Source of the DNA: an uncultured bacterium | Lineage (GTDB): Bacteria > Auribacterota > Erginobacteria > Erginobacterales > Erginobacteraceae | Reading direction: 5' to 3' | DNA length: 32,000 bases | Assembly (NCBI GenBank): GCA_964465735.1 | Contig: CAYXKT010000010.1 | Span: forward strand, 2,925 to 34,924 | Shown: positions 10,364 to 27,744 of the stretch, in pieces | Layout of the letters: each line of letters begins with the position of its first letter | Position numbering within the stretch: the stretch's first letter is position 1 | Made by a program: the position numbers and the translations under genes | The notes under the pieces: model-generated | Told to the model about the DNA's origin: nothing | The model's database searches: none | The model's input: only the letters and a program-made list of their open reading frames with translations

Positions 10364-10392
10364 AATTCGACAGGATTTAGAAGATAGGGAGA

Positions 10393-10445
10393 ATGGAGTG
10401 ATGGAGTGATGGAGTGATGGCGGCTCAATCCGGTCCCTCACTCCG
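10393..10445 (+). repeat. GGAGTGATGG-type intercistronic repeat, copy 1 (3x tandem octamer plus hairpin)
   Basis: GGAGTGAT occurs three times in tandem from 10395. The last unit (10411-10420) can pair with CCCTCACTCC (10435-10444). The element begins about 30 nt after the glycosyltransferase stop. Confidence 0.7.
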
Positions 10446-10501
10446 ACGCGCCGAACCTCCATCTGTTCCCTGATTTTGGGCAATCAAACAAGGAGAATGT
10501 G

Positions 10502-11506: not shown

Positions 11507-11531
11507 ACCATAGCGAGCGGGGATTTAAAAA

Positions 11532-11590
11532 GGAGTGAGGGATCGGCTGTGGCTGCCGGTATTCCAGTACCCCAGCACCCCAGTCACCGT
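11532..11590 (+). repeat. GGAGTGAKGG-type intercistronic repeat, copy 2
   Basis: GGAGTGAGGGATCGGCTGTGGCTGCCGGTATTCCAGTACCCCAGCAC aligns with copy 3. It starts 26 nt after the dehydrogenase stop. Confidence 0.7.
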
Positions 11591-11631
11591 AATCCTATTA
11601 ATTTCTAAATAGTCAACCGGCAAGGGAGAAA

Positions 11632-12240: not shown

Positions 12241-13343
12241 TCCCCCGGCCCCGGAGAGTCCTTTATGTGATCGACAAGATGGTCCGGGCGGGGGCTCAGC
12301 GCCATCTGCGGCAGCTGCTCGCCGGTTTTGACCGCCGGGAGGTCGAACCGATGCTTTGCTGTCTGCTCAGTTCCGGGCCCCTGGCGGAGGAACTGGCGGG
12401 GGAGGGGATCGTGGTCGAGACTCTGGGGCTGGAAAATATTATGGGTTTCCGGTTCTTTCGGGCCATTGCCGGCTTGCGGCAGATCATCCGCCGGCACCGG
12501 ATCGACCTGGTCCATTCCTATCTCTTTGCCGCCAACCTGGTCTCCCCTCCAGCCGGCTTGCTTACCAATACGACGGTAATTACCAGCCGACGGGATACCG
12601 GGTTCTGGAAGACCCGCCGCCATATTCTGGCCCTTCGGGCGGTCAACCCCCTGACCGGGAAGATCACCGCCAACTCCCGGGCGGTGGTCGAATACCTTCA
12701 CCGGCGAGAAAGGGCAAAAGCGGAAAAAATTGTTTTGATCTATAATGGGGTCGAGCTCCCGGCCGGGGCAGAGATGCCTGCTCGTCCGACCGGAGCGGGC
12801 AGTAAGATTGTGATTGGCGCGCTGGGGAATATCCGTCCGGTCAAGGGCTACCGGGAACTGCTCAAGGCGGTAGGGATGCTGGCACCGGATATTGATTGGG
12901 AACTCCGGGTGGCCGGGCGGACACTGGATTACGGCTACCGGGAAGAGCTGCGGGATCTGGCCGGTGAAGAAGGACTGGGCGGTCGGATAAGTTTTATCGG
13001 AGAGGCGGCCCAACCGGAAGAATTTCTCCAGGGTCTGGACATCTTTGTCCTGCCCTCCCGGACAGAAGGATTCTCCAACGCCCTGATTGAGGCGATGGCC
13101 TGTGGTCTGCCGGTTATTGCTACCACGGTCGGCGCTAACCCGGAGGTGATCGTCGAGGGGGAGAGCGGCTTGCTGGTCAAGCCCGGGGTCCCCCAACTTT
13201 TGGCGGAGAGGCTGGAAGAACTGGCCCGGGATCCCGGGCTCCGTTTCCGTCTGGGCCGCGCGGGCCGCCGGAGGGTCGGGGAAGTTTTCAGCCGGGAGGC
13301 GATGTGTCGGAATTATCGGGATTTATATTATGAGTGGGCTTGA
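12237..13343 (+). CDS. Glycosyltransferase, GT4
   Basis: The ORF-track start at 12177 would overlap the upstream gene by 64 nt. The ATG at 12237 gives an ATGA overlap and the N-terminus RVLYVIDKM. The C-terminal motif is LPSRTEGFSNALIEAMACGLPVIAT. Confidence 0.85.
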   Translation: MIPRPRRVLYVIDKMVRAGAQRHLRQLLAGFDRREVEPMLCCLLSSGPLAEELAGEGIVVETLGLENIMGFRFFRAIAGLRQIIRRHRIDLVHSYLFAANLVSPPAGLLTNTTVITSRRDTGFWKTRRHILALRAVNPLTGKITANSRAVVEYLHRRERAKAEKIVLIYNGVELPAGAEMPARPTGAGSKIVIGALGNIRPVKGYRELLKAVGMLAPDIDWELRVAGRTLDYGYREELRDLAGEEGLGGRISFIGEAAQPEEFLQGLDIFVLPSRTEGFSNALIEAMACGLPVIATTVGANPEVIVEGESGLLVKPGVPQLLAERLEELARDPGLRFRLGRAGRRRVGEVFSREAMCRNYRDLYYEWA

Positions 13344-14160
13344 ATTCTTCTCCCGGCAGAGGCTCCGGAAGGTTCTTCCTCGCCTGGCGGCAACCTGTGC
13401 GCCTAAAGTCGGTGGGTTCAGGGTCCGGATCCTGATGTATCATCGGGTTACCGATATCCCCGGTGATCGGCTGTCGGTATCTCCGGACGAGTTTAGCCGA
13501 CAGATGGATCTCCTCCGGGCCGGAGGCCGGACGGTGGCGGATCTCTCCGCCGCCTTCTTTCGGGATGGGGCAGATCGCGAACGGAGCCGGGAGGTCCTGG
13601 TCCTGACTTTTGATGACGGTTACCGGGACTTTTATGATAATGTCTTCCCAATTCTCCGGGCCCGGCGGCTGCCGGCCGTGGTTTTTGTCGTCCCGAAATT
13701 CATTGAGGGCGCGATCGAGCTGGACCGCTACCGGGGGAGGGGAGAGGACTCTCGCCCGCTCTCCTGGGAGATGTTGGCGGAGATGAGCAAGGAGGGAATA
13801 GAGATCGGTTCCCATTCCCTGACCCATCGGGAATTGACCGGGCTGAGTCGGCCGGAAGCCGAGACCGAGATCTTGAGGTCAGCGGCGGTGATCGCCGAGC
13901 AACTGGGCCGGCGGCCGCAATGGTTCGCCTACCCCCGGGGGAAGGCCGATCCTGGGCTGGCCGAGTTGGTCCGGGCGGCCGGCTATCGGGGGGCCGTTAC
14001 CGTCCGGCCCGGGATCAATCGGTCGGGCCAGGACCGCTACCTGCTGCGCCGGACTGAGATCTCGGGAGATGACGACCGGGAAGATTTTTTGTTGAAGATT
14101 GCCGGAGGTTTTGATCTTCCTCACCGGGTCTGGCAGATAATGGCGGGGAGGAGATTATGA
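13330..14160 (+). CDS. Polysaccharide deacetylase (CE4 / NodB-homology)
   Basis: 276 aa with ILMYHRV, LTFDDGYRDFYDNVFPIL and IGSHSLTH. It overlaps the upstream glycosyltransferase by 14 nt. Confidence 0.8.
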   Translation: MSGLEFFSRQRLRKVLPRLAATCAPKVGGFRVRILMYHRVTDIPGDRLSVSPDEFSRQMDLLRAGGRTVADLSAAFFRDGADRERSREVLVLTFDDGYRDFYDNVFPILRARRLPAVVFVVPKFIEGAIELDRYRGRGEDSRPLSWEMLAEMSKEGIEIGSHSLTHRELTGLSRPEAETEILRSAAVIAEQLGRRPQWFAYPRGKADPGLAELVRAAGYRGAVTVRPGINRSGQDRYLLRRTEISGDDDREDFLLKIAGGFDLPHRVWQIMAGRRL

Positions 14161-14163
14161 AGG

Positions 14164-14225
14164 ATGGAGTGATGGACCGGATGGGGCTGCCGGTACTCCA
14201 GTACTTCAGCACAGCAATACTGCGT
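14164..14225 (+). repeat. GGAGTGAKGG-type intercistronic repeat, copy 3
   Basis: GGAGTGATGGACCGGATGGGGCTGCCGGTACTCCAGTACTTCAGCAC begins a few nt after the deacetylase stop. Confidence 0.7.
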
Positions 14226-14281
14226 CGCTCCAATTGCCAGGTGAATCCGGATATTTCCCTGCTTGCCTCTTATCGATACCA

Positions 14282-15427
14282 ATGAACGGCAGACGAAAAA
14301 TTACGATCCTCCACCTGATTGACAGCCTTCCCCGGGAGGGGGCGGAGATGGTGGTCTATGACCTGATCCAGCAGGGAAACCGGGAGGAGTTTAATTTCCT
14401 GGTCGTTGCCCTGACTCGGGGCGGCGGGGTGGCGGAGATGCTAAAAGCGATCGATATCCCGGTCGATATCCTGAAGAGAAGATCGTTTCTTGACCTCCGG
14501 GCTTTTCGCCGGTTGCTGCGCTTGATCAGAAATCGGAGGGTGGACGTGATCCAGACTCATCTCTTTTCCAGTCATCTCTGGGGGTGGGCGGCGGCGCTTT
14601 TCTTCCCCCGGGTCCGGCTGCTGCGGGTCGAGCACAATATGTCGGAATGGAAGAATTATCTCCGCCGGGGTCTGGATTATCTGCTTTCTTTTCGGACCGA
14701 CCGGTTTGTCGCGGTCTCCAAACCGGTCCGCGGATCCCTGGTCTCGCGCTGCCGTATCGACCCGGTTAGGGTTGAGGTGATTGTGAACGGATTGAATACC
14801 GACCGACTCCGGCCAGGTTCTGACCCGGCCGCCTGGCGGCGGAAACTGGAGATTCCGGCGGAGTCAAAGATTGTGGTCACCGCCGCCGCGCTTACTTCGA
14901 AGAAAGGTCACCGGTATCTTCTGTCGGCATCCGAACTGGTCTCTGCCCATCGGGATGATGTCTATTTTCTCTTACTTGGGGAGGGGGAACTGCGGGGCGA
15001 ACTGGAAAGTTCAATCCGGGAGCGGGGGCTAACCGATCGGGTATTTCTCCTCGGCTCCCGTTCGGACGCGGTGGAGATTATCTCCCAATCCGATCTCTTT
15101 GTTCTCAGCTCGATCCGGGAGGGTCTGCCGATTTCCCTGCTGGAGGCGATGGCTCTGAACCGACCGGTGGTGGTAACCGCGGTGGGAGGATGTCCGGATC
15201 TGATTGTGGAAGGTGAAAACGGCCTCCTGGTTCAGCCCCGGGACGGGGCAGGTCTGGCGGCGGCGATCGTAAAGGTTCTCGACTCTCCGGGGCTGGGAGA
15301 ACGGCTGGGAAAAGCGGCCGCCCAAACCGTGGTTACAGGATACGGGATGCGGGGAATGATCGAAGCTTACGAACAACTCTACCGGTTGAACCGGGAGCAG
15401 CTGAGAAGACGAGTGGGGAACCAATGA
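14282..15427 (+). CDS. Glycosyltransferase, GT4
   Basis: The ATG at 14282 gives the N-terminus MNGRRKITILHLIDSL. The ORF-track start at 14234 lies inside an intergenic repeat. The C-terminal motif is LSSIREGLPISLLEAMALNRPVVVTAVGG. Confidence 0.85.
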   Translation: MNGRRKITILHLIDSLPREGAEMVVYDLIQQGNREEFNFLVVALTRGGGVAEMLKAIDIPVDILKRRSFLDLRAFRRLLRLIRNRRVDVIQTHLFSSHLWGWAAALFFPRVRLLRVEHNMSEWKNYLRRGLDYLLSFRTDRFVAVSKPVRGSLVSRCRIDPVRVEVIVNGLNTDRLRPGSDPAAWRRKLEIPAESKIVVTAAALTSKKGHRYLLSASELVSAHRDDVYFLLLGEGELRGELESSIRERGLTDRVFLLGSRSDAVEIISQSDLFVLSSIREGLPISLLEAMALNRPVVVTAVGGCPDLIVEGENGLLVQPRDGAGLAAAIVKVLDSPGLGERLGKAAAQTVVTGYGMRGMIEAYEQLYRLNREQLRRRVGNQ

Positions 15428-15726
15428 GCGATCTCAAGCCGATCCCGGAAAAACGGAAGATCCGGGTCAGAACCCGGGTGGACGAGAGACGGACCGAGAA
15501 GATTAGCGGTCGGCTGTCCCGGGTAAAGGTCGTGGCCGTATTATTTGCGGCGGCGGTCGTGGGGATTGCCCTGGGAATTGTCCTGGGCCGGGGGGCTAAC
15601 CGGATGGTCAGTGTTCATCGCCAGCAGAAGCGGATTGCTCAGTCCCTGCCGAAGTTCAACCCCGATTCTTCGGACCTGGCGGAACTGGCTCCGGTGGCGG
15701 AACCCGGCAAGTCGCCCGCGCGTTGA
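15424..15726 (+). CDS. Small hypothetical single-pass membrane protein
   Basis: 100 aa. The start overlaps the upstream glycosyltransferase stop (ATGA). A basic N-terminus is followed by one hydrophobic helix (VKVVAVLFAAAVVGIALGIVLG). I recognise no family. Its last 88 nt overlap the convergent motB-like gene. Confidence 0.4.
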   Translation: MSDLKPIPEKRKIRVRTRVDERRTEKISGRLSRVKVVAVLFAAAVVGIALGIVLGRGANRMVSVHRQQKRIAQSLPKFNPDSSDLAELAPVAEPGKSPAR

Positions 15727-16463
15727 ATGATCTCAATCTCCACCCGGCGGTTCATCGCTCTCCCCTCGGGCGTGGCGTTGCTTGCTGCCGGCTGGTAGGG
15801 GCCATAACCGATCGCGCTGAGAATCCCCGGCCCGATCCCCTGTTCGTCGATCAGATACCGCATTACTGAACTTGCCCGGGCGCAGCTCAACTCCCAGTTG
15901 GAAGGATAACGGAGGGTATTGATCGGAAGGTTGTCGGTATGCCCACTGATCCGGACTTCAACGGTCGGGTTGTGGAGAAAGACCCGGGCCAGAAGGTTGA
16001 GAAACTCTTTCCCTTCCGGTCTCAGATCGGCCGAGGCGGGGCGGAAGAGAAAAGGGGCGAGGGGGACGATCTTCAGCTTCCACTTGCTGACGTCAACCCG
16101 GACGAAGCGGCTTAAATTGGCGTCGATGATATACTGCTGGATCTCCCGGGCCATCTGCCGCATCTCGTCAATCCGGGCCAGCTCCCGCATCTGCTGCTCT
16201 TTTAATTCCCGGATTTTATCCAGCAGTTCCTGCTCCTCCTGGGTCAGCTCAACATCGATCGCGTCTTCTATTCTTCGGTCGGAGAGCTGGATCAAACGTT
16301 CCCCGGCGATCCAGACCACCGGGATGTTCAGGGCCAGCATCGTGGAGAGGATGATGAAGAAAGTCATCATCAAGGTGGCCAGATCGGAGTAGGTGGTCAT
16401 CCACTCCGGCGGCCAGCCGGCGCCCCCCTCGTCCGGATTGAAATTTTGCCTTCTTCGGGCCAT
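15639..16463 (-). CDS. motB: MotB-like stator subunit, paralog 2 (OmpA-like peptidoglycan-binding C-terminus)
   Basis: 274 aa. The N-terminal TM segment carries the conserved Asp (WMTTYSDLATLMMTFFIIL). A periplasmic coiled coil follows. The OmpA-like domain reads RISGHTDN...PSNWELSCARA...GYGPYQP...NRRVEIEI. Confidence 0.85.
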   Translation of the reverse strand: MARRRQNFNPDEGGAGWPPEWMTTYSDLATLMMTFFIILSTMLALNIPVVWIAGERLIQLSDRRIEDAIDVELTQEEQELLDKIRELKEQQMRELARIDEMRQMAREIQQYIIDANLSRFVRVDVSKWKLKIVPLAPFLFRPASADLRPEGKEFLNLLARVFLHNPTVEVRISGHTDNLPINTLRYPSNWELSCARASSVMRYLIDEQGIGPGILSAIGYGPYQPAASNATPEGRAMNRRVEIEIIQRAGDLPGSATGASSARSEESGLNFGRD

Positions 16464-16482
16464 TATCAGGGTTCGGTCGGAT

Positions 16483-17298
16483 TTATCTCTCGGCCATCTC
16501 GGAGCCGAGATAGATATGGAACTCGACCCGGCGGTTGCGCCCCGTCAGTTCGGGGTCGTCTTCTTCATACTTGGGTCGGGAAGGGCCGTAAGCCGCGGCG
16601 GAGATCCTTTCCGGGGGGATCTCCCCCCGGTCAATGAGGTAATTGGCCGCGGCAATCGCTCGGGCGGCGGAGAGTTCCCAGTTGCTGGGGAACTGTTGCT
16701 GATGTCGGGGGTGGATCGGGGTGGAGTCGGTATGCCCCTCGATCCGGACCGAGGCTCCGGTCTCTTCAATCAGCCAGGCGATCTTGTCCAGAACCGGATA
16801 GAAAGACTGGAGAATTTCTGCCTTACCCTCCCGGAAAACCAGAGGCGCGGTAGGGATGATCACGATATCCTCCGCCGTTACCAAGAGCTCGACGTCGCCC
16901 TCCATCCTTCCCATCCGAACAAACTCCATCACCTCTTCCGCTTTCATCCGCAGGGTCCCCAGTTCGCTGAGGACGGTCTGCTGCTGTTTGCGGGGGAGCA
17001 GCTGGAATTGGGTCAGGATCCGGTACTCATCCTCGGTGACAAAATCCATCTGGCTGGTCTCGGCGGTTCCCCGGATGATATCGGCATCGTCCTCCTCCCG
17101 CATTTTGATGTATTTCTCGTCAATCCCGGCTACGGTCAGCGAATACCAGAGGACAAAGAAGGTCATCAGGATGGTTGTCATATCGGAGTAGGTGACCATC
17201 CAGTCCGGTGGCCAGTCCCCTTCGATCCCGCCGGCCCCGGACTCGGGGGCGATCCGTTCGTGCTCAATCTGGGGGGTGAGTTCAGTCTCGTCGGGCAT
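16483..17298 (-). CDS. motB: MotB-like stator subunit, paralog 1 (OmpA-like C-terminus)
   Basis: I chose the ATG at 17298, which follows GGGAGGAG and avoids overlap with motA; the ORF-track start is 17388. The TM segment with Asp is WMVTYSDMTTILMTFFVLW. The OmpA-like domain reads RIEGHTDS...PSNWELSAARA...AYGPSRP...NRRVEFHI. Confidence 0.85.
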   Translation of the reverse strand: MPDETELTPQIEHERIAPESGAGGIEGDWPPDWMVTYSDMTTILMTFFVLWYSLTVAGIDEKYIKMREEDDADIIRGTAETSQMDFVTEDEYRILTQFQLLPRKQQQTVLSELGTLRMKAEEVMEFVRMGRMEGDVELLVTAEDIVIIPTAPLVFREGKAEILQSFYPVLDKIAWLIEETGASVRIEGHTDSTPIHPRHQQQFPSNWELSAARAIAAANYLIDRGEIPPERISAAAYGPSRPKYEEDDPELTGRNRRVEFHIYLGSEMAER

Positions 17299-17344
17299 AG
17301 TATGTCTCCTCCCGGGAAGAGCTTCCCGGGCCCGTCCATCGGTC

Positions 17345-18097
17345 CTACTGCCGGCCGGCCAGGTAGGCGCGGAGTTTTTCCCGGACAATCTGGGAATTGT
17401 CGCCGGCCTGGATCGAGGCGATTCCCTCGATGATGATCTCGCGGGAGAGGGCCATATTGGTATTGTAGACCCGAATCTTCCCCGCTACCGGCATACAGAT
17501 CAACCCGGCGAAGAGGATCCCGTAAAAGGTGGTCATCAACGCGACCGACATATTCGGGGCGATGGTCGAAGGGTCGGTCAGAGTCCGCAGGAGCATAATC
17601 AACCCGATCAGGGTCCCGACCATCCCGTAAAGAGGAGCGTAAACCCCGACATCCCGCCAGAGTCGTTCGTCGGCGCCGATCTTCATCTGCAGATAGTCGG
17701 AGACGGTCTCCATAATTCCCCGGGTGATCCCGGGGTCAGTCCCGTCGGCCACCAGGTCAACCCCGATATCAAGCAGGGGGTAGCGGCCCTTGGTTGAGAG
17801 TTCCCGGATCGACATAAATCCTTCCTTCCGGGCCTTGACGGCCATCTCCACGATCAGGTTGATCACCGCTTCCGGGTCCATCACCGCCCCGACCAGAGTG
17901 AAGCGGAAGGCCTTTAAGCCGCTGATGATCTGGTAGAAGCTGAAGTTAATCATAATCGCGGCCGCCGTTCCCCCAAAGACGATGATCACCGACGGGAGGT
18001 TGAAAAAGTAGGGGAGCATCTCCGGTCCCCGGACGTAGATGGAGAGGAAGACGACGCTTACTCCGAGAATAAAACCGATTATGGTGCTGAGGCGCAT
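17345..18097 (-). CDS. motA: MotA/PomA-family stator subunit
   Basis: 250 aa. Two N-terminal TM helices are followed by a charged cytoplasmic loop (KARKEGFMSIREL). The C-terminal TM pair has conserved Pro contexts (YAPLYGMVGTLIG; ALMTTFYGILFAGLICMPVAGK). Confidence 0.9.
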   Translation of the reverse strand: MRLSTIIGFILGVSVVFLSIYVRGPEMLPYFFNLPSVIIVFGGTAAAIMINFSFYQIISGLKAFRFTLVGAVMDPEAVINLIVEMAVKARKEGFMSIRELSTKGRYPLLDIGVDLVADGTDPGITRGIMETVSDYLQMKIGADERLWRDVGVYAPLYGMVGTLIGLIMLLRTLTDPSTIAPNMSVALMTTFYGILFAGLICMPVAGKIRVYNTNMALSREIIIEGIASIQAGDNSQIVREKLRAYLAGRQ

Positions 18098-18103
18098 AGT
18101 TCT

Positions 18104-18310
18104 TTAACCTGTAGTTGGTTCAGGTTTAGGGGAGTTGATCTCCTGCTTGTAGCGGGTGACCTTGGTGATAATATCGTCAACCAGATCCCGGACAATATAT
18201 TGCTCCCCGGAGTTTAAGGTGATGATGGTGTCCGGCTTGGCTTCCAGCCGTTCGATCATCTCAGCGTTGATGATCAATTCCTGTCCGTTAAGCCTGGTCA
18301 GCTTGATCAT
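18104..18310 (-). CDS. flbD: FlbD-family small flagellar-type protein
   Basis: 68 aa. MIKLTRLNGQELIINAEMIERLEAKPDTIITLNSGEQYIVRDLVDDIITKV matches the FlbD pattern as I recall it. It sits directly upstream of motA, as in spirochaete and firmicute loci. TAATG overlap with the upstream gene. Confidence 0.8.
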   Translation of the reverse strand: MIKLTRLNGQELIINAEMIERLEAKPDTIITLNSGEQYIVRDLVDDIITKVTRYKQEINSPKPEPTTG

Positions 18311-20412
18311 TATTTCTTGGCGTTCTCCCCCGCCTCGTCCTGGAAGTGGGGGACGGTAACCAGTCCGTCGTGGGAAAGCTTGCGGATAACGGCGATAATT
18401 TCGTGTTGGGCGGACAGGGTCTTACTGGACAGCTTGCGCAGCACATCCATAATCTCTTCCTGGGCCTCGACCGCCCGGGAGTGGGGGATACCCCCCATCA
18501 CCGTCAGGTCTTCTTTGAGCATCGCCCCCGCCCGTTCGGTCAGGCCGGTAAAGAACTTGGTCTGGACTTCTTCCGACGAACCCCGCAACGCCATCTTTAA
18601 AGTGGTCCGTTCCACGGTCCGAAAAATTTCGTCGATAATCGATTGATCGACGGCCAGCATTGCTTCATTGAAGGGGAGTTCCTTCCCCTCTTCCTCAATC
18701 TGGACCTTTTTGACCGATTCCATATCTTCTTTCAGGCGGGAGCGGCCCTTGTCGGTCATATTTTTCATAAACTTCGAGCGGACATCTTCGGGGGCGTCAA
18801 CCAAAGCGGCACCCAGGACTTCGATATTCAAGTTGTGGATCAAGGTCTCCACATCCTTGTCCTGAAGAGTCTTGATGTCTTCGAAGAGGAACATCCGTTT
18901 TCTGACGTCGGTAGCCATCGCCGGATTATTGCTATCCATCTTCTCCAGCAGGACCTTGGCCATCGCGTAGCGGCTGGAGGAGAGCATATCCGCCAGGACC
19001 CGGACCCCGGTCACCGGCTGATAATCTTTCCTCAAGCGGACAATCTTCAGTTTTCTCTCGAGGAAGTCCTTGATCTCGTCGGCCATATCCTCTTCCTCGG
19101 TCAACTGAGTCATTGCTCGAGCCATCTCGAACTGCTTCTCCTCGTCGAGAGCCTCAAAGACCGAGGCCGACGTCTGGGCGTCGAGCTGGGAGAGGACCGC
19201 CGCCGCTAATTTCGGCTCCTCGTCCTTGATCAGAAGGATGATATCCTCCGGATCAGTGGTCTTGATGTATTTAAATGGCTGCTCAACCAGGCTGGGGGAT
19301 CGTTCCAACTGCTGGCTCATCAGTTCCTCGAGGTTGCCCAGGACCTGGATCACCTGCCCTCCACCCCCCCCGAAACCTCCGTCTCCGGAGGGCGCGGCGG
19401 CCGCGGCCGCCGCCGGCGGTGCTCCGGGAGCGGCCGCCGGAGCACCGGGTACACCCGGCGCGCCGCCGCCGCCCAATCCGCGTCTCCGCTGTTCATCGAG
19501 CAGATCGGAAAGGGTGTCTCTCATTTCGGTCAGCAGGACGTCGGATTCCTGGGCGGGGCTGCTTAAAAGATCCCGGATCTCTTCGAGGATCCCGACATCG
19601 ATCCTCCCTCCGCCGGACCCGCTCCCGACCTGCATTTCCATCAGTTCCTTGATCCCGGTCAGGGTGGCCTCCCGGGTATCGCTGGAGATCCCGGAGAGGG
19701 CCTTCTTCAGTTCTTCCAACTCCGCCTGCCGCTGCTTTCGCTCTTCTTCTGAGAGATGCATCCCGCCGGCGGCCGCGACACCGCTCTCGGGGCTGCCGGC
19801 CTTGACCTTCCGCATCGGAAAGTAGATGGCGGCGATCAGGATTAAAAGGGCAACCAGCGCGAGAATGGAGTAGAGCAGGTAGTTCTGCTGGGCGGCGGAG
19901 GGAGGAGAGAAATCTCCCCACTTCTTGGGGATGACCCGGACCGTATCCCCCCGGGCGGGATTGATCCGGGCCCAGCGGGTGATGGCTTCCTGGATCTGCC
20001 CCGGTTCATCCGGGGTCCCCAGATCCGAAGCCGAGAGTTTTTCATCAGCTTCGACCGTGATGTGGATGCTGGAGATTTGGGCGAACATCCCCCGACTGGC
20101 CGGCAGGGCCTGCTCTCTTTGTTCGGTCGTCGGGATCCGGACCCCCGGCAGTCGCTCCAGGACCCGGGCTGTGTCAGGATCCTGGAGGTCGAAACGATCG
20201 GAGAGGGTGACTTCCACACTGACAATACTCCGGTGGGGGCCAAGCATTGTGTTAAGATTATTCTGTAGAGAGGCTTCCAGGGCGGAGGCGATCTGGGTGG
20301 CGTCGCCCCGCTGGATGGTCTGGGCCCCGGTGGCCGGGATCAAAAGGAAAAAGCATAGGACCGGGAGAAAAATGTTCCCGGAGTTTCGGCTGAAGAAAGT
20401 TATCCTTGCCAT
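18310..20412 (-). CDS. Membrane-anchored FliF-like / FliG-like fusion protein (TM - ring-building periplasmic domain - TM - linker - FliG middle and C domains)
   Basis: 700 aa.
- Residues 1-30 form a signal or TM segment.
- Residues ~31-176 have FliF-like segments (LNTMLGPHRSIVSVEVTLSD; ISSIHITVEAD; NPARGDTVRVI just before the TM).
- TM2 spans residues 177-198.
- Residues 311-353 are a Gly/Ala/Pro low-complexity linker.
- Residues ~378-700 are FliG-like (PFKYIKTTDPEDIILLIKDEEPKLAAAVLSQL; MFLFEDI; torque-helix-like RSKFMKNMTDKGRSRLKEDM and QTKFFTGLTERAGAMLKEDL). Confidence 0.7.
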   Translation of the reverse strand: MARITFFSRNSGNIFLPVLCFFLLIPATGAQTIQRGDATQIASALEASLQNNLNTMLGPHRSIVSVEVTLSDRFDLQDPDTARVLERLPGVRIPTTEQREQALPASRGMFAQISSIHITVEADEKLSASDLGTPDEPGQIQEAITRWARINPARGDTVRVIPKKWGDFSPPSAAQQNYLLYSILALVALLILIAAIYFPMRKVKAGSPESGVAAAGGMHLSEEERKQRQAELEELKKALSGISSDTREATLTGIKELMEMQVGSGSGGGRIDVGILEEIRDLLSSPAQESDVLLTEMRDTLSDLLDEQRRRGLGGGGAPGVPGAPAAAPGAPPAAAAAAAPSGDGGFGGGGGQVIQVLGNLEELMSQQLERSPSLVEQPFKYIKTTDPEDIILLIKDEEPKLAAAVLSQLDAQTSASVFEALDEEKQFEMARAMTQLTEEEDMADEIKDFLERKLKIVRLRKDYQPVTGVRVLADMLSSSRYAMAKVLLEKMDSNNPAMATDVRKRMFLFEDIKTLQDKDVETLIHNLNIEVLGAALVDAPEDVRSKFMKNMTDKGRSRLKEDMESVKKVQIEEEGKELPFNEAMLAVDQSIIDEIFRTVERTTLKMALRGSSEEVQTKFFTGLTERAGAMLKEDLTVMGGIPHSRAVEAQEEIMDVLRKLSSKTLSAQHEIIAVIRKLSHDGLVTVPHFQDEAGENAKK

Positions 20413-21246
20413 TTATTCTGCCTCGTACTCAGGGGTGGCTTCCGGTTCCTCGACTTCTCCCCCGGTAAACTCATCTTCACTGACCGGAGAAGTATTCTCC
20501 GCCAGTTCCGGGTAACGGGGGACGAGGAGGACCATCCCCGGATAGATCAAGTCGGGGAGGAAGATCTGGTCCCGGTTGGCGTGATAGAGCAGAAGCCAGC
20601 GATAAGGGTCGTTATAGATCTCCTCACGGCCGGCGATCTTCCAGAGATTGTCATCTCTTCTGACCATATAAGTATATGTCGCGGCCCGCTCCACCGCCAT
20701 CCCCGACGGGGCCGGTCCAGGGGCAACCGCTCCATCCCCGATCCAGGCGGTGGCGGGTGGAGGCGCCATCTCTAATTCCTCGATCTGGAATTCCAGGGCC
20801 TCGATCTTCAGCGCCCGGTCATCGGCGATTTTTCGCAGGGAGGCCGCCTCTTCAGTCAGTCGGTCCCTTTCCCGGCGGAGGTGTTCGTTGGCGGCCACTT
20901 CATTGAGGAGTTCCTCCCGGATCTCCCGGCAGTCCTCTGAGGCAATTAAAAACTCCTCCCGGTCGATCTTCCGAGCCGGTCGGCGGCGGGTGAATTCATC
21001 GGACCGCGGGTTGATGAAGATATAACCCCGGTTTCCCCAATCCCGGACCGTCTCTCCCCCGTAGATTCCCGGTTGGGGACTGTAGGGATAATCGATTACC
21101 CCGGTGGTCCGACCCGATTTCTTCCAGACACTCTCCAATCCCGTGCGGTCGATATTTATCGACGACTGTCCGTGCAGCTGGGGGGGGGATAAAAATCCGG
21201 AGAAAAGGAAGATGGAAATTATGATTTCGAAGGATGTCTTGAGCAT
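20413..21246 (-). CDS. Secreted coiled-coil protein with C-terminal LysM peptidoglycan-binding domain
   Basis: 277 aa. It has a signal-like N-terminus (IIISIFLFSGFLSPPQLHGQ) and a central heptad-rich region (LRRERDRLTEEAASLRKIADDRALKIEALEFQIEELE). The LysM pattern is YTYMVRRDDNLWKIAG...YNDPYRWLLLYHANRDQIFLPDLIYPGMVLLVP, followed by an acidic tail. GGGGAGG RBS. Its stop abuts the start of the next gene. Confidence 0.8.
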   Translation of the reverse strand: MLKTSFEIIISIFLFSGFLSPPQLHGQSSINIDRTGLESVWKKSGRTTGVIDYPYSPQPGIYGGETVRDWGNRGYIFINPRSDEFTRRRPARKIDREEFLIASEDCREIREELLNEVAANEHLRRERDRLTEEAASLRKIADDRALKIEALEFQIEELEMAPPPATAWIGDGAVAPGPAPSGMAVERAATYTYMVRRDDNLWKIAGREEIYNDPYRWLLLYHANRDQIFLPDLIYPGMVLLVPRYPELAENTSPVSEDEFTGGEVEEPEATPEYEAE

Positions 21247-21404
21247 TGCCTGAAGCCTCCCCGATACTCCAATAATTTAAGTAGTGGAGGGGGGCAGGAT
21301 ATCGCTCCCTGTTCCGCTACCTGATGCCATCTCTAATTGTGTAATCTACATAAATCGGAATGTATTGTAAAGAGAACTTTTTTGCTGTTCAGCCGGGGAG
21401 CGAT

Positions 21405-21433
21405 TTGACAATCAAGAGAAAATTTGGTATTGT
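21405..21433 (+). promoter_or_regulatory. Sigma70-like promoter candidate for the 21518 gene
   Basis: TTGACA (21405-21410) is followed by a 17-nt spacer and TATTGT (21428-21433). A TG lies at the extended -10 position (TGGTATTGT). The region is a relatively AT-rich divergent intergenic spacer. Consensus rules may not transfer to this lineage. Confidence 0.45.
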
Positions 21434-21517
21434 CGGCTTGTCTGATATTCCGGCTCAGAAGATCAAAACCGGCCTCCCCTTTCTTCACCAAAATAGCATA
21501 ACACTACTGGACCGAAG

Positions 21518-22552
21518 ATGGAAAGAAAAAGTTTCGTCCGGATTTCCCTTCATCTGCTCTGGGGGATCTTGATCATAGTAGTTCTCCTCCTGTTTTTTCG
21601 GGAACGGTTGGGCCACCTGCCCGGTTTTTTCCGGCGACTGAAAAGGGAGCCCCAGGCCCTGGTCTCGGTCTTCAAGCCTCGGGAGATGGCCGGGGTCAGT
21701 TTCTCCTTCGCTGATCCGGAGGACCGGGCCGTCTGGAAGACCTCGGGATCCCGGCTGGAGGCCGTCCCCGCTTTCTTCGGGGCGGATGAAACCTGGGGTC
21801 GGGTTACCTATCAGCCTTCCGGTTCCCCGGGTTTGCTTTTGACCGATGAGACAATGGGGGTGATGGACTGGCGGGGGGCGGAGAGTCTCTCCTTCTCCGT
21901 CTATAACCCCCAGACCTGGTCGATCAACCTCAAGATCAAGGTCAAGGATACCTCCGGCCACAGTTTCCAGAGTGAACAGGAGATCCCTCCTCGGGTCCGG
22001 ACTGTGGTCACCATCCCGGTCCGGGATATCGCTTCCCGGCTTGATCTGAGCCGGGTCGGCTACCTGAATATCTTCCTCTGGGATCCGACTACCGCCACAG
22101 ATCTGTATCTGATTGACTTCGCCTTCCCCGCCCCTGGCCGGCCCTCTGTCCCTTCCGGCCTGGTCAAATTTATGGGGCTACAGTTTCCCTCCGTGCTTCG
22201 GCCGGGAGAGGAGGTTGAAGCAGTCTTTTATTTTCTCCCCAGTCGTCCGCTTGCCGCCGACAGTGTTCTTCTGATCCGGCTCCGCCGGGGCGAGGAGCTC
22301 TTCTCCCTGGTCCGGGTTGATCCGCCCACCCCGACCAGCCGCTGGCGACCCGGACGGTTGGCCAAGGTCGGGCCGTTCCCGGTGGAGATCCCCGCCGATC
22401 TCCATCCCGGCCGCTACGATCTGGAGGCGATCCTGGCCCAGCCGCTTTCCAGCGCCCGGGGCGAGGAGCTGGTCTTTCAGCCCTACCAGAACCCGGAAAT
22501 TCTTGGTTTCAAGGTCTCGGAAATAAATGTGACCGGTGAGGGAGGGATGTGA
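21518..22552 (+). CDS. Hypothetical membrane-anchored protein (CBM-like beta-sandwich plus 'PGxYD' beta-sandwich domain)
   Basis: 344 aa with an N-terminal TM helix (LHLLWGILIIVVLLLFF). The central and C-terminal regions are paralogous to the next gene (LHPGRYDLEAILA...FQPYQNPEILGFKVSEINV versus EPGEYDIRAGLL...REPYLNPEIENFIIGRLTV). A promoter-like element lies upstream. Confidence 0.6.
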   Translation: MERKSFVRISLHLLWGILIIVVLLLFFRERLGHLPGFFRRLKREPQALVSVFKPREMAGVSFSFADPEDRAVWKTSGSRLEAVPAFFGADETWGRVTYQPSGSPGLLLTDETMGVMDWRGAESLSFSVYNPQTWSINLKIKVKDTSGHSFQSEQEIPPRVRTVVTIPVRDIASRLDLSRVGYLNIFLWDPTTATDLYLIDFAFPAPGRPSVPSGLVKFMGLQFPSVLRPGEEVEAVFYFLPSRPLAADSVLLIRLRRGEELFSLVRVDPPTPTSRWRPGRLAKVGPFPVEIPADLHPGRYDLEAILAQPLSSARGEELVFQPYQNPEILGFKVSEINVTGEGGM

Positions 22553-22614
22553 TACATTTTACCCTGGCGGGGACAGAATGAATATCCGACAAGAAACATC
22601 CAATGAAGAAGGGG

Positions 22615-22640
22615 AGACGGTCCGCTCTGCGGGACCGTCT
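22615..22640 (+). terminator. GC-rich hairpin downstream of 21518-22552
   Basis: AGACGGTCC (22615-22623) pairs perfectly with GGACCGTCT (22632-22640) around an 8-nt loop. It lies about 60 nt after the stop. The 3' tail (GGTTATCTCC) is only weakly U-rich, so intrinsic-terminator function is uncertain. Confidence 0.4.
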
Positions 22641-22801
22641 GGTTATCTCCGCCGTCTTGATTATTTGACAGAAATAGTGGGTGACAATCTGTCAGTGTGA
22701 GCTATAGATTTTAGCCGCGAGTTAAGTGTGGCGGGAAGTAGTCTCAATTTATTGACAGGCAGATAAGCTGTCAGAACACCGGAAAAACCGAGGATAAAGT
22801 T

Positions 22802-24289
22802 ATGAAAAAAACCGTCTCTTCTGCCGCCCTTTTTGCCGCGTTTCTTTCTCTCTTCTCCCTCCCCGCGCTTTTTGGGCAGGGATATGGCTCTTATCGGACC
22901 GAGGTCCGGGAAGGTGATCCGAGACTGCAACTGGTCAGTTTCAGTCTCCCGACCGAGATCCCCCAGGGAGAACTGATCAGCGGCAGCCTCTTCTTCAAGG
23001 CGACCCGGCCCCTGGAAGAGAACCTGAAAGTATTTTTTCATCTGGTCCGCCCCGGCCAAACCAAGACCGTCCTCAACGGCGACTTCTCTCCTCCCAACTC
23101 CACCCGGCTCTGGGATGTCAACCAGGTGGTGGAGGCGGGTCCTTTCGAACTGTCGGTCCCCTTTAACCTGGAGCCGGGCGAATACGATATCCGGGCCGGA
23201 CTGCTCCAGATTGTTCGGGAGGAGGATCTGGTCCGCTATATCCGGGAGCCATACCTCAACCCGGAGATTGAAAATTTTATTATCGGCCGGCTGACGGTCC
23301 AGGGGACGGAGAGGGCCGATCTCTCGGGTCCCTCTGAGCTTGATCTGATCGCCTTCGACAACGAGGAGGAGATCATCTTCTGGGAGGCCTCGGGGGCGAA
23401 GATGGAGTTTGCCGGCTACTCCGAGGAAGGGGAAGAGACGGTCTCCGCCGTCCGGGCTACCATCCTCCCCGGGATTGTTGAGTACCCGGGGGTGAGTCTG
23501 CAGAATTTTTTTAATCTCTTGCCCGCTCGGTCCGACTGGTCACTTTACGATACTCTCCGTCTCCACCTCTCTCTTCCGCCGGGAGACTCGGCCGGTCAGC
23601 TGCGGCTTTTGATTGAAGACCGGGCCGGGCGGCGTTATGAGTCCAACATAACCGTCTCCCCGGGCCGGACCAAGCGGCTCAATCTCTCCACGGTCGATCT
23701 CAGCGGTTCGATCAATGTCTCCGCGATCCGCCGAATGAAGCTTTACCGGGTCAACCCGACCTCAGCTTTCACCTTCTACATCTCCCACCTCCAGCTGATC
23801 TCCCGGGGCCAGCCGACCGGGAAACCGGCGTTGACTTTTGTTCGGATGGAGGCGCCCGATCAGGTCCGGCGGGGCCGCCCCTTCCAGATCCGGTTCTTCT
23901 TCAGCATCGACCAGCCGATCTTCCAGAGTCATAAGCTCTTTACTCACATCTACCGGGTCAACGATATGGCCGGGAAGGCCACCTCGGATATCTCTCTTCC
24001 CCAGCCGATCCGGAACTGGCGGCTGGGCGAGGAGATAGCGGTTGATTCCGGCCCCCTGATGATCTCCACTGATGGCCCCCCCGGAACCTATGTGGTTCGG
24101 GCCGGGCTTTATGTCGTCGCCGACAGCTCCGGCCGGGGCTATGTCAAGGTCGATGACTGGTTGGCCTATGACAGCAGCCAGGAGGTGATCAACATTATCC
24201 AGCCGGATGGACCGGTCGATTACATCAAGCAGCCCTATACCAACTCCGATATCCAGAACTGGGAGGTGGGGACGATCACGGTCGAATGA
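22802..24289 (+). CDS. Hypothetical secreted protein (domain X - CBM-like - domain X)
   Basis: 495 aa. It has a signal peptide (AALFAAFLSLFSLPALFGQ) and a GAGGA RBS 7 nt upstream. Two copies of the 'PGxY..AGL...PY.N..I....G.ITV' domain flank a central CBM-like segment. Confidence 0.65.
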   Translation: MKKTVSSAALFAAFLSLFSLPALFGQGYGSYRTEVREGDPRLQLVSFSLPTEIPQGELISGSLFFKATRPLEENLKVFFHLVRPGQTKTVLNGDFSPPNSTRLWDVNQVVEAGPFELSVPFNLEPGEYDIRAGLLQIVREEDLVRYIREPYLNPEIENFIIGRLTVQGTERADLSGPSELDLIAFDNEEEIIFWEASGAKMEFAGYSEEGEETVSAVRATILPGIVEYPGVSLQNFFNLLPARSDWSLYDTLRLHLSLPPGDSAGQLRLLIEDRAGRRYESNITVSPGRTKRLNLSTVDLSGSINVSAIRRMKLYRVNPTSAFTFYISHLQLISRGQPTGKPALTFVRMEAPDQVRRGRPFQIRFFFSIDQPIFQSHKLFTHIYRVNDMAGKATSDISLPQPIRNWRLGEEIAVDSGPLMISTDGPPGTYVVRAGLYVVADSSGRGYVKVDDWLAYDSSQEVINIIQPDGPVDYIKQPYTNSDIQNWEVGTITVE

Positions 24290-27705: not shown

Positions 27706-27744
27706 CCCTGATCCTGCCGATCTCCGGTCACCGAATCCCGACTC

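Follow-up and report, generated by a model that had tools for sequence, protein, structure and literature searches.

Genes and features of the locus

The window analysed here is the whole 32-kb stretch of DNA. It contains six co-directional genes that encode a LysM protein, a fusion of FliF-like and FliG-like parts, FlbD, MotA and two MotB paralogs, and that sit inside an exopolysaccharide (EPS) locus. The features of the locus, in window coordinates, are as follows.

7584-15427: left arm of the locus, with a flippase, three GT4 genes, GFO, a hexapeptide transferase and a second deacetylase
15639-21246, minus strand: six-gene operon (LysM protein, fusion, FlbD, MotA, MotB1, MotB2)
15639-16463, minus strand: gene 6, MotB paralog 2, 274 aa; transmembrane (TM) segment with channel Asp, plug, OmpA
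16483-17298, minus strand: gene 5, MotB paralog 1, 271 aa; TM segment with channel Asp, plug, OmpA
17345-18097, minus strand: gene 4, MotA/PomA-type stator A subunit, 250 aa, four TM segments
18104-18310, minus strand: gene 3, FlbD/SwrD family, 68 aa; profile match
18310-20412, minus strand: gene 2, fusion, 700 aa; FliF(RBM3)-TM-linker-FliG_M-FliG_C-FliG_C; putative membrane rotor ring
20413-21246, minus strand: gene 1, LysM protein (profile matches), 277 aa; secreted or membrane-anchored
21247-21517, no strand assigned: intergenic region that separates the operon from the divergently oriented hyp344 block
21518-25143, plus strand: divergent partner block, conserved beside the operon, distant loci included
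21518-22552, plus strand: hyp344, secreted beta-sandwich protein, paralog of hyp495
22802-24289, plus strand: hyp495, secreted beta-sandwich protein, paralog of hyp344
24286-25143, plus strand: membrane-anchored metallophosphoesterase, following hyp495
25428-29201, no strand assigned: EPS/exosortase genes
25428-26213, plus strand: PgaB-like deacetylase
~26210-27073, plus strand: exosortase EpsH (TIGR02602, 130.4 against a cut-off of 105.6)
27058-27705, plus strand: EpsI (TIGR02914, 76.7 against a cut-off of 42.8)
27801-29201, minus strand: priming sugar transferase (TIGR03025, 398 against a cut-off of 295.6)

The TAA stop codon of the LysM gene abuts the ATG of the fusion gene (gaaTAAATGgca), the fusion gene and flbD have a TAATG in common ("aaaTAATGatc"), and the other intergenic gaps in the operon are 6, 46 and 19 nt. 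The 46-nt gap presumes that MotB1 starts at the ATG at 17298, which is the choice of the gene caller; the longest open reading frame (ORF) for this gene begins at a TTG at 17388. The divergent intergenic region contains promoter-like sites on both strands (consensus matches only). Beyond it, hyp495 resembles the CBM-like modules of xanthanases and agarases and also CBM11, i.e., carbohydrate-binding modules. No ORF in the window has a PEP-CTERM-like tail. The first-pass annotation, made from sequence alone, had described six minus-strand ORFs as one packed operon, specified each of these junctions, assigned the flanks to an exosortase-type EPS locus, and reported that the 32 kb contain no flagellar switch (FliM/N), export, rod, hook or filament gene. 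All of these claims held: every ORF was found at its claimed coordinates, and EpsH, EpsI and the priming transferase exceed curated cut-offs.

The LysM protein has an N-terminal signal (hydrophobic segment), a coiled coil at ~aa 110-160, a Pro/Ala linker, a LysM domain at aa 193-243, and an acidic tail. The LysM match is weak in Pfam (17 bits, under the cut-off), and NCBIfam LysM models match with E 4e-8. This gene lies upstream of the fusion gene in all related loci. FlbD matches its family profile across positions 1-58 of 59 (PF06289, E 1.2e-24, 86.1 bits against a cut-off of 24.7) and is kept in all loci, including the TPR class described below. Sequence comparison shows it to be the stator-associated factor of flagellar flbD-motA-motB cassettes.

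A flagellar-type stator

Conservation in the operon is highest for MotA (67-93% among Auribacterota). It matches MotA_ExbB (PF01618) with E 3.8e-21. Its best NCBIfam match is PomA at 181 bits; the PomA/MotP models score 179-181 bits, under their equivalog cut-offs. The best PDB matches are flagellar MotA/PomA, with E values from 3e-42 to 7e-37, and there are no others. Both channel prolines are invariant. So is the first rotor-contact Arg, one half of the cytoplasmic charged pair that contacts FliG (R90/E98 in E. coli, R88/E96 in PomA). Position R+8, however, is K/R rather than acidic, and an acidic residue is found at R+9 in most, not all, loci. By this alignment, the MotA-rotor interface thus appears to differ from the canonical one, with the acidic contact shifted by one position.

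The two MotB paralogs are 32% identical to each other. Both exceed the MotB_plug cut-off (36.5 and 40.6 bits; cut-off 24) and match OmpA (65 and 66 bits), and the channel Asp is invariant in both across 12 loci. Hence, MotA together with MotB1 and MotB2 carries flagellar-type stator features, as shown by sequence comparison.

A truncated FliF-FliG fusion

The fusion protein can be divided into the following segments, all on the minus strand.

20314-20382: aa 11-33, first hydrophobic segment (signal/TM)
19918-20310: aa 35-165, periplasmic ring-building-motif (RBM) domain, assigned from AlphaFold, Foldseek, a PDB profile search and relatives
19801-19893: aa 174-204, second TM helix, near-invariant YLLYSILALVALLILIAAIYFPMRK
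19288-19800: aa 205-375, cytoplasmic linker, in the place of FliF-C/FliG_N
19045-19251: aa 388-456, FliG middle domain, from a profile match
18691-18945: aa 490-574, first FliG_C unit, aligned to A. aeolicus FliG
18343-18627: aa 596-690, second FliG_C unit, aligned to T. maritima FliG_C (1qc7/8ucs)

Evidence for the FliF-like part comes mainly from fold and from relatives. The AlphaFold model has the RBM alpha-beta-beta-alpha-beta topology with a core pLDDT of ~80 (alpha 35-57, beta 62-70, insert 73-111, beta 113-123, alpha 139-147, beta 157-163), although confidence is low for the full-length model taken as a whole (mean pLDDT 57, pTM 0.25). The insert at aa 73-111 is predicted with low confidence and occupies the position of the FliF beta-collar, and the domain ends in an invariant RGD motif, as in FliF. 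In Foldseek searches, FliF RBM3/S-ring structures match the periplasmic domain with probability 1.0; in a family-profile search of the PDB, the best two matches are FliF (E 0.02 and 0.27). Pfam profile searches with the window protein gave no match for this part, but YscJ_FliF_C (PF08345) matches a distant relative (P0028) at 30.6 bits, over the gathering score, and another family member (P0026) weakly, at 17 bits. PF01514, which represents RBM1-RBM2 of YscJ/FliF, gave no match to the N-terminal 210 aa even at E<=10. The periplasmic part is only ~140 aa and has a single RBM. Fold and relatives therefore show that the N-terminus is a FliF RBM3-type domain, while the window sequence by itself is weak evidence.

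The cytoplasmic linker has no Pfam family in profile searches and is helical in the model; between its conserved helical motifs ("ILEEIRDLL...PQESDALLTEMRDTLSDLLDEQR") lie variable stretches rich in Gly, Ala and Pro. In the FliG part that follows, FliG_M is matched with E 3.5e-11 and FliG_C with E 7.6e-35 over two stretches, both over the gathering scores, and the internal duplication of FliG_C is detected with E 3e-6. The best Foldseek matches for this part are FliG_MC. The first FliG_C unit contains an invariant MFLFEDI hinge and torque-helix copy 1 (NMTDKGRSRLKEDM) with conserved charges (K/R555...E562 D563); the second contains torque-helix copy 2 (LTERAGAMLKEDL), with R627, E634 and D635 invariant, and C-terminal helices. 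FliG_N is absent, its lone match being weak (E 0.016) and overlapping the M domain, and an invariant EEPK stands where FliG has the EHPQ motif that binds FliM. The fliG equivalog TIGR00207 scores 149 bits, under its cut-off of 226.7. Databases label the fusion as FliG. Among database representatives, 61/63 short-RBM3/FliG fusions lack EHPQ, and 47/61 FliGs of canonical length keep it.

How do these results compare with the initial reading? The domain assignments of all six proteins were supported, with the FliF-like N-terminus resting on lines of evidence other than its own profile match. The claim of a complete stator, based on the MotA Pro contexts and on the TM Asp and OmpA domain of both MotBs, held, and the MotB plug was found in addition. 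The proposal that a FliF-like ring-building domain tethers FliG torque helices to the membrane also held; the FliF part is narrowed to an RBM3-type domain, and FliG_C proved to be tandemly duplicated. A failure of profile searches to support FliG or FliF homology at 18310-20412 would have refuted the proposal, and profile and fold searches together exclude this.

Conservation of the operon and its neighborhood

The six-gene order is intact in 11 species-level metagenome-assembled genomes (MAGs) of Auribacterota, including Ca. Erginobacter occultus. An Omnitrophota MAG and one metagenome contig, where the fusion is ~30% identical, have the intact order as well, and another distant metagenome contig has the same order as far as the contig end. 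The operon is far beyond chance, because it is conserved in >14 independent loci, and the intact order across these loci shows that it is deeply conserved and under strong purifying selection.

The surroundings are conserved too. The operon is always divergent from secreted glycan-binding-like beta-sandwich proteins accompanied by a metallophosphatase. A deacetylase and a priming transferase are present in most loci, with Wzx/Wzy/Wza/Wzz or exosortase genes near, and EPS genes follow wherever the contig reaches far enough. No switch, export, rod, hook or filament gene was found in the +/-10 kb flanks of related loci. Recurrence of the neighborhood with EPS genes, which the first-pass annotation had put forward as a check, was thus borne out in related loci. 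A constant link to exosortase was not: there is no exosortase within 10 kb of the operon in three distant loci (L028, L030 and L031), and the constant neighbor is instead the secreted glycan-binding-like block with its metallophosphatase. The link to envelope polysaccharide is strengthened because synteny persists across two phyla between proteins that have diverged to 27-50% identity. Synteny within one clade may nonetheless partly mirror shared ancestry rather than function.

A sister class has a shorter set of genes (a fusion with TPR, FlbD, MotA and MotB) and adjoins giant-protein and Wzy_C genes. Specifically, its neighbors include giant ORFs of >3,200 and 8,833 aa, a UPF0164/PorV-like+TPR protein and a Wzy_C-TPR protein. 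One giant ORF has a faint Por_Secre_tail match; the PorV and Por_Secre_tail matches are under curated cut-offs. Since the core recurs in this giant-protein context, it is a reusable module. The truncated-fusion architecture as a whole is represented by at least 61 clusters at 50% identity, and no description of such a system was found in the literature searched.

Comparison with known systems

One of the known systems closest to the module is the core of the flagellar motor. RBM3, FliG_M and FliG_C, the MFxF hinge, the charged torque helix, PomA/MotA, and the MotB plug, Asp and OmpA domain are all homologous, and the flbD-motA-motB gene order is the same. Given these homologous parts, the predicted torque-generating interface is the flagellar one. 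There are also differences. The module lacks RBM1 and RBM2, and an insert of ~40 residues replaces the beta-collar. In FliF, RBM1 and RBM2 house the export gate. FliG_N is replaced by a covalent FliF-FliG link, and with EEPK in place of EHPQ, FliM docking is not expected. FliG_C is duplicated, there are two MotB paralogs for one MotA, and a LysM/coiled-coil partner is present. Unlike the flagellar core, the module has no C-ring, export, rod, hook or filament genes beside it and is found in EPS loci of bacteria reported to be non-flagellated.

Working flagellar motors tolerate a covalent linkage of FliF and FliG. One such fusion, from Vibrio, was used for the structures 8z4d/8z4g, which are among the matches of the window protein, and the database also contains natural full-length fusions (P0056, P0114 and P0153). 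P0056 and P0114 retain a long FliF periplasmic region before the RBM3-like part; P0056 and P0153 retain EHPQ, while P0114 has no match to the EHPQ pattern. These full-length fusions are likely flagellar. The window protein, by contrast, is a truncated, S-ring-only version without EHPQ.

Other systems share parts of the concept. Non-flagellar 5:2 motors (GldLM of T9SS gliding, AglRQS-Glt/Nfs, ExbBD-TonB, TolQR-TolA and ZorAB) likewise use a MotAB-family motor to energize a non-flagellar envelope process, and the targets of two of them, Agl-Nfs and GldLM, are surface polymers or giant adhesins, which resembles the contexts of the module. However, these motors have GIT-type (ExbB/TolQ-like) A subunits and transmit force through a periplasm-spanning B subunit or partner rather than FliG, whereas the module has a PomA-like, plug-bearing stator of the flagellar type and its partner is a FliG-bearing ring. 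An ExbB/TolQ/GldL-type A subunit was considered for MotA and rejected (TolQ model, E 0.0057 and 16 bits, against 181 bits for PomA). SpoIIIAG, PrgK and EscJ are one- or two-pass membrane RBM proteins, with or without a beta insertion, that form large periplasmic or intermembrane rings; unlike the module, they have no FliG domains and no stator pairing, and Foldseek ranks FliF RBM3 far over PrgK/MxiJ for the fusion domain. Lastly, the B. subtilis EpsE clutch and stator-dependent EPS signaling are known to link EPS loci with the FliG-MotA interface. Those cases involve a complete flagellum, with regulation running from EPS genes to the flagellum or the other way; in the present case, the EPS locus itself encodes the FliG and MotAB parts, and there is no report of a flagellum.

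Proposed function and alternative explanations

What does the module do? On balance, the evidence slightly favors a flagellum-independent rotor-stator module, driven by ion-motive force, that serves the surrounding envelope-polysaccharide locus; the function is inferred. In this model, the fusion would oligomerize into an S-ring-like membrane ring presenting a crown of FliG torque helices. Peptidoglycan-anchored stators, possibly MotA5-MotB1-MotB2 heteromers, would be activated on this ring and would turn it, or load torque on it, with H+ or Na+ flux as the source of power. Neither a C-ring nor an export gate, rod or filament would be attached. Mechanical output would instead reach the periplasm by way of the ring and of the LysM/coiled-coil protein translated along with it, a potential binder of peptidoglycan or of a polymer containing GlcNAc. 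The exopolysaccharide that the flanking genes produce may be what the output works on, be it in export, assembly or movement. Ring formation, stator stoichiometry and rotation are all inferred by analogy, and a peptidoglycan-binding LysM partner is hard to square with a freely rotating ring.

The most conventional alternative is that the operon is a variant flagellar motor or a decaying remnant of one, that the host is flagellated now or was recently, and that the EPS location is incidental. Indeed, all parts are homologous to flagellar proteins, the database annotation of the fusion is FliG, flagella are reported for one MAG of Auribacterota, that of Ca. Auribacter fodinae (PMC9324843), and flagellar genes could be hidden by MAG incompleteness. 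Against this, the fusion lacks RBM1/2, most of the beta-collar and FliG_N, and has an invariant EEPK for EHPQ, so it cannot be an ordinary FliF/FliG. Nor, for the same reasons, can it simply be the sole FliF/FliG of a normal flagellum; in addition, its ortholog is present in the Ca. Erginobacter occultus MAG (L004), which encodes no flagella according to its describers (PMC9324843). The absence of flagella is one paper's statement about MAGs that are 88-100% complete, and it does not cover the window's own genome. Decay is incompatible with gene order, reading frames and catalytic or contact residues kept across two phyla down to ~30% identity, and the position in a polysaccharide locus is constant. 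The flagellar reading is therefore very unlikely, and the first-pass view of a self-contained stator-plus-ring module rather than a flagellar locus is supported as to its parts, its output being inferred only. The circumstance named as refuting that view, a fusion that is simply the only FliF/FliG of a normal flagellar regulon, did not apply. Even more remote, and all but excluded, is a Zorya-like or other MotAB-based anti-phage defense. ZorA and ZorB are homologous to MotAB, and in PADLOC the OmpA/MotB regions of the MotB paralogs have some similarity to ZorB models. This generic ZorB/OmpA similarity of the MotBs is the only match, however: MotA has none to ZorA, and the fusion, FlbD and LysM proteins have none at all. 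MotA, at 250 aa, has a PomA-like cytoplasmic domain without the long ZorA tail, no ZorC/D-like genes are present, and the context is chromosomal housekeeping and EPS.

A signaling device remains possible. Here, the stator and ring would be a switch that senses load or ion flux, or a FliG docking site, and would regulate EPS synthesis without doing mechanical work on the polymer, like stator-dependent c-di-GMP/EPS control in Pseudomonas, Vibrio and Caulobacter or the B. subtilis EpsE-FliG clutch in reverse. Stator-EPS signaling is documented in flagellated bacteria (e.g., PMC7098655, PMC7314104), which provides a precedent. In addition, the Omnitrophota operon directly adjoins a histidine kinase and a REC-GGDEF diguanylate cyclase, the conserved linker motifs could bind a regulator or glycosyltransferase, and a filament-less ring has no obvious load to drive. 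However, no c-di-GMP or PilZ gene is found in the window or the Auribacterota loci, and a sensor has no obvious need for an RBM, duplicated torque helices, FlbD and two peptidoglycan-anchored MotBs, all of which are strongly conserved. A surface-motility motor is less plausible and judged unlikely. By analogy with GldLM driving SprB in Bacteroidota or Agl-Glt/Nfs in Myxococcus, it would power gliding-like movement or the transport of a surface adhesin, with EPS as slime or adhesive. The giant ORFs of the sister class, with their PorV-like+TPR and Wzy_C-TPR neighbors and the faint Por_Secre_tail match, speak for it. The Myxococcus Agl motor moves polysaccharide spore-coat machinery, which adds a precedent. 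Yet the sub-threshold status of the PorV and Por_Secre_tail matches weakens this support, the window has no gliding or T9SS genes, and no outer-membrane component was identified in the Auribacterota operon. Moreover, surface motility overlaps with the rotor-stator module serving polysaccharide and does not exclude it.

Functional implications

Flagellar-type stators and FliG are usually regarded as specific to the flagellum. Indeed, plug-bearing MotAB with the torque interface were defined as "flagellar ion transporters" (the "FIT" clade) in a 2025 classification (PMC12505986). The operon is a candidate for a minimal rotor and stator that is deeply conserved and genetically tied to polysaccharide secretion, suggesting that flagellar torque machinery may be reused at the cell surface for another, undescribed job. 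If this is true, ion-driven rotary motors would have a new output, and the module would be a natural minimal system for torque generation, with few proteins and a covalent FliF-FliG link. It would bear on models for the evolutionary assembly or disassembly of the flagellar motor. It would also point to an unknown energy-dependent step in the deployment of EPS or biofilm matrix by abundant uncultured anaerobes.

A bolder reading, for which the case as yet falls a little short, is that a widespread and previously unrecognized family of flagellum-independent rotary machines exists in PVC-group bacteria. Its core would be a truncated FliF(RBM3)-FliG fusion ring without a C-ring, together with FlbD and a flagellar-type MotAB stator, and its targets would be exopolysaccharide for the six-gene version of Auribacterota and Omnitrophota and giant surface proteins for the TPR version. 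In both, the flagellar torque-generating interface would do mechanical work on surface macromolecules. The FliG-MotA interface would then have its first use outside the flagellum, and the family would have a relation to the flagellum like that of the injectisome, yet derived from the motor rather than from the export apparatus.

Operon layout and genomic surroundings

The first-pass annotation described six minus-strand genes packed as one operon, and ORF calling recovered them exactly as described. Its account of the junctions also held. The TAA of the LysM gene is followed immediately by the ATG of the fusion gene, TAATG is the overlap common to the fusion gene and flbD, and the remaining gaps are 6, 46 and 19 nt, the 46-nt value depending on the start chosen for MotB1. 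The features discussed here are as follows:

15639-21246, minus strand: six-gene operon encoding a LysM protein, the FliF-FliG fusion, FlbD, MotA, MotB1 and MotB2
18310-20412, minus strand: fusion gene
16483-17388, minus strand: longest reading frame for MotB1
14234-15427: GT4 glycosyltransferase gene
15424-15726, plus strand: 100-aa ORF with a single transmembrane (TM) segment
21518-22552, plus strand: hyp344, a secreted hypothetical protein
22802-24289, plus strand: hyp495, a secreted hypothetical protein
25901-27073, plus strand: longest reading frame for EpsH

Two starts are possible for MotB1: the longest ORF, from TTG 17388, encodes 301 aa and overlaps motA by 44 nt, and the gene-caller start at ATG 17298 gives 271 aa and the 46-nt gap, with the homolog alignment starting near this shorter form. 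The single-TM ORF shares its first 4 nt with the end of GT4 and, being convergent with motB2, overlaps the 3'-terminal 88 nt of that gene (15639-15726); it is predicted by gene callers in identical contigs (L001) and belongs to no known family.

On the left flank, clpP-clpX-uppS-cdsA-dxr-rseP-ispG is followed by the EPS locus. This locus encodes a flippase, three GT4 glycosyltransferases, a GFO oxidoreductase, a hexapeptide transferase, two PgaB-like deacetylases and one GT2, together with exosortase EpsH, EpsI and a priming transferase, all three of which exceed curated cut-offs. The longest EpsH ORF starts at GTG 25901 (390 aa) and overlaps the deacetylase gene by ~300 nt. Gene callers place the start near 26210 (287 aa), leaving a 4-nt overlap with the deacetylase stop that suggests translational coupling. 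No PEP-CTERM substrate proteins were found in the window, and promoter and terminator scans gave consensus-level hints only. As first claimed, the 32 kb contains no flagellar genes besides the operon. Because the window has no tRNAs and its base composition is uniform, without a break, there is no sign of an island, and a tRNA or mobile-element context was rejected.

Divergent from the operon, hyp344 and hyp495 are secreted beta-sandwich paralogs that share the C-terminal motif 'PY.NP[ED]I' and match no Pfam or NCBIfam family. The hyp495 model (pLDDT 78) has three beta-sandwich domains, predicted to resemble non-catalytic carbohydrate-binding modules of xanthanase and GH50 agarases, plus CBM11. 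Hypotheticals of similar size are divergent from the operon in distant loci as well.

A FliF-FliG fusion reduced to one ring-building motif

What remains of FliF in the fusion protein? Hydropathy places membrane segments at aa 11-33 and aa 174-204. An AlphaFold model made with 13 homologs as input is poor overall (mean pLDDT 57), with a confident periplasmic core (pLDDT about 80) in the order alpha-beta-[insert 73-111]-beta-alpha-beta, which is ring-building-motif topology; the insert occupies the place of the beta-collar in FliF. In the Foldseek ranking, FliG_MC structures came top and numerous FliF RBM3/S-ring structures (probability 1.0) next, with the T3SS rings PrgK and MxiJ well behind. 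Pfam found no FliF match in the isolated N-terminal 210 aa of the window protein. The family member P0026 matches PF08345 weakly, the distant relative P0028 is above the cut-off for that model, and a profile of family N-termini searched against the PDB gave FliF as its two best matches, aligned via a common RGD motif before the second TM segment. The family profile, the relatives and the fold show that the FliF-like ring-building domain is real, but that it is only RBM3. RBM1 and RBM2, which surround the export gate in FliF, are absent.

The second TM segment is followed by a linker of ~170 residues, then FliG_M (E 3.5e-11), then FliG_C (E 7.6e-35) twice. The FliG_C duplication reaches significance at E 3e-6, and distant relatives show it more cleanly. 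When residues were aligned to T. maritima and A. aeolicus FliG and across the family, the MFxF hinge was invariant, and a basic residue and an acidic pair were kept at canonical positions in both torque helices. FliG_N is missing, and an invariant EEPK replaces the FliM-binding EHPQ motif. The fusion has therefore lost features related to both FliM and the export gate, and its domain architecture is incompatible with a canonical MS-ring/C-ring, whatever gene inventories say. Of the homologies first claimed for this gene, FliG-like torque helices held on the profile matches and residue alignments, and the FliF-like part held when narrowed to RBM3.

The linker (aa 205-375) contains repeated invariant helical motifs, 'LEEIRDLL', 'LLTEMRDTLSDLLDEQR' and 'VLGNLEELM', separated by variable Gly/Ala/Pro-rich stretches and recognizable in the Omnitrophota homolog too. 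It matches no known family. The motifs could form a partner-binding site, an inference from sequence.

Stator, FlbD and LysM proteins

MotA matches MotA_ExbB (E 3.8e-21), its best NCBIfam models are PomA/MotP, and its best matches among solved structures are without exception flagellar MotA/PomA (E 3e-42 to 7e-37), not ExbB/TolQ. Both MotBs carry MotB_plug and OmpA domains by Pfam/NCBIfam. Conservation was scored over 12 operons, including some with ~30% fusion identity: the first rotor-contact Arg and both channel prolines of MotA are invariant, as is the channel Asp in both MotB paralogs. The initial claim of a complete stator, with conserved MotA Pro contexts and a TM Asp and OmpA-like domain in each MotB, held; one MotA acidic contact deviates. 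Within MotA aa 87-99 (window 17800-17840), R+8, canonically acidic, is K/R in all 13 sequences, and an acidic residue lies at R+9 in most (L009 has G there, and L008 has N). This shift may mean a modified rotor-stator charge interface.

The two MotB paralogs, which share 32% identity, both persist in the Omnitrophota locus, so the duplication is old; a heteromeric MotB1-MotB2 dimer is plausible, although untested. Gene 3 matches the FlbD family in Pfam (E 1.2e-24), and the LysM domain is weak but reproducible in Pfam and NCBIfam. Profile searches thus supported the assignments made from sequence alone, the FliF N-terminus of the window protein being left without a Pfam match.

Distribution and synteny

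Clustering at 90% identity divides the fusion family into 27 clusters, whose members are all about 690-710 aa long; where a name is given, the annotation reads Ca. Erginobacter occultus, Ca. Auribacterota or PVC group. In a species-representative genome collection, 11 MAGs carry it. Operon-bearing MAGs include JAVCCZ01 (Erginobacter), CAZPMN01, CAWGIE01, CAZOYW01, CAZKCI01, PWXJ01, JAZDIV01 and GCA_042566865.1. When the window genes were mapped onto these loci, the six-gene order was intact wherever the contig covers the operon, the same two EPS arms always enclosed it, and MotA was the most conserved operon gene (67-93% identity). More distant full-length relatives of the fusion came from an exhaustive profile search against 1.84 billion representatives. 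A search with an alignment of these distant members returned the near family only and no new taxa; the word index limits its reach. In an exact cluster look-up, a single distant member received a name, from Omnitrophota.

Deep synteny of the operon with polysaccharide genes is evident in the distant loci. The order LysM-fusion-FlbD-MotA-MotB-MotB recurs in L028 (a Ca. Omnitrophota bacterium) and L030, and in L031 as far as the contig reaches, which is into the first MotB; the short contig L029 has an upstream LysM-like gene (faint LysM match), the fusion and FlbD. In L028, L030 and L031, one or two secreted hypotheticals of 340-500 aa are divergent from the operon with a metallophosphatase alongside, and Wzy, Wza, Wzz or tyrosine-kinase genes are also nearby; L028 and L030 additionally have a deacetylase and a priming transferase. 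No exosortase lies within reach of the operon in these three loci, so the constant partner is polysaccharide assembly generally, not exosortase as such. Hence, recurrence of the neighborhood held with polysaccharide genes, and the exosortase link is not constant.

Directly upstream of the LysM gene in L028, and divergent from it, are a histidine kinase and a REC-GGDEF diguanylate cyclase (L028:6494-9160), adjoined by a Wzy_C polymerase. This pair could tie the locus to c-di-GMP; the window has no counterpart of it.

Flagella and earlier literature

Williams et al. 2022 (PMC9324843) state that flagella are not encoded by any Auribacterota MAG from Ace Lake, at completeness of 88-100%; they describe type IV pili in Ca. 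Erginobacter occultus and flagella in Ca. Auribacter fodinae. The complete operon is present in L004, from the same Erginobacter MAG (isolate MAG_3300035698_653). The absence of flagella from this operon-bearing MAG rests on that published statement, with no whole-genome screen here. Flagella go unmentioned in a second paper, which deals with related Auribacterota MAGs. A study of MotAB evolution (PMC12505986) treats stators with a plug and torque interface as flagellar, and a survey of flagellar loss reports that about 11% of non-motile genomes have rotor proteins, which "could have an alternative function". Searches of 8 million full texts turned up no description of a module of this type. 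Neither MotA nor FliG comes up in the relevant passages of giant-gene and Omnitrophota papers, and those of the giant-gene papers do not mention the sister class described next.

A wider class of truncated fusions

Among the top 149 representatives, 63 have an N-terminal RBM3-like domain, then a TM segment and FliG_MC (median 625 aa), many with a C-terminal TPR domain. EHPQ is missing in 61 of these 63, the exceptions being P0056 (a full-length FliF-FliG fusion) and P0175, and is kept in 47/61 canonical-length FliGs of the same list. Two contigs show the surroundings of P0041, a TPR-class fusion: in order, they encode a giant ORF of 8,833 aa, a UPF0164/PorV-like+TPR protein, the fusion, a coiled-coil protein of 1,091 aa, FlbD, MotA, one MotB and a Wzy_C/TPR protein. 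ORFs of >3,200 aa adjoin other members of this sister class.

Sister-class fusions have a signal peptide, FliF_C-like domain, TM segment, FliG_MC and TPR, and their loci are L034:1-18827 and L035 (JGI 3300033153/3300033148), with L026, L027 and L032. The Por_Secre_tail match of the 8,833-aa ORF is faint and sub-threshold. Other natural fusions join FliM/FliN-like sequence to FliG (P0043, P0145 and P0166; 589-996 aa, one with two FliG_MC copies) or are full-length FliF-FliG fusions (P0056, P0114 and P0153; 787-920 aa, with EHPQ retained in P0056 and P0153). Both kinds are likely flagellar variants.

Functional implications

What could the operon do? A variant flagellar motor, or a remnant of one, is very unlikely: the module would work like the flagellar rotor-stator core but fails the tests of flagellum membership, and a pseudogene or remnant was rejected because the six reading frames and key residues are all conserved across two phyla. 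A defense role is all but excluded, Zorya and defense systems having been rejected on PADLOC results. Gliding-like motility overlaps with the reading preferred here and is unlikely. A signaling or clutch-like role of the module remains possible.

On balance, we lean toward an ion-driven rotor-stator module that is independent of any flagellum and serves the EPS pathway. This supports and extends the initial interpretation of a self-contained stator-plus-ring module rather than a flagellar locus. The homology, topology and residue conservation of the proteins are established; the mechanism is inferred. The fusion would form a membrane ring, the stator would engage that ring to give rotation or torque, and the work would reach EPS export, assembly or movement via the periplasmic ring and the LysM/coiled-coil protein. 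The module is, in these terms, a kind of ion-driven rotor-stator motor. The bolder reading, that it is a distinct and undescribed class of machine, is one to which we give a sizable chance, if not quite an even one. Because the core recurs beside both EPS genes and giant ORFs, a truncated FliF-FliG fusion with FlbD and MotAB is a reusable module, present in at least two non-flagellar settings, both concerning surface macromolecules.
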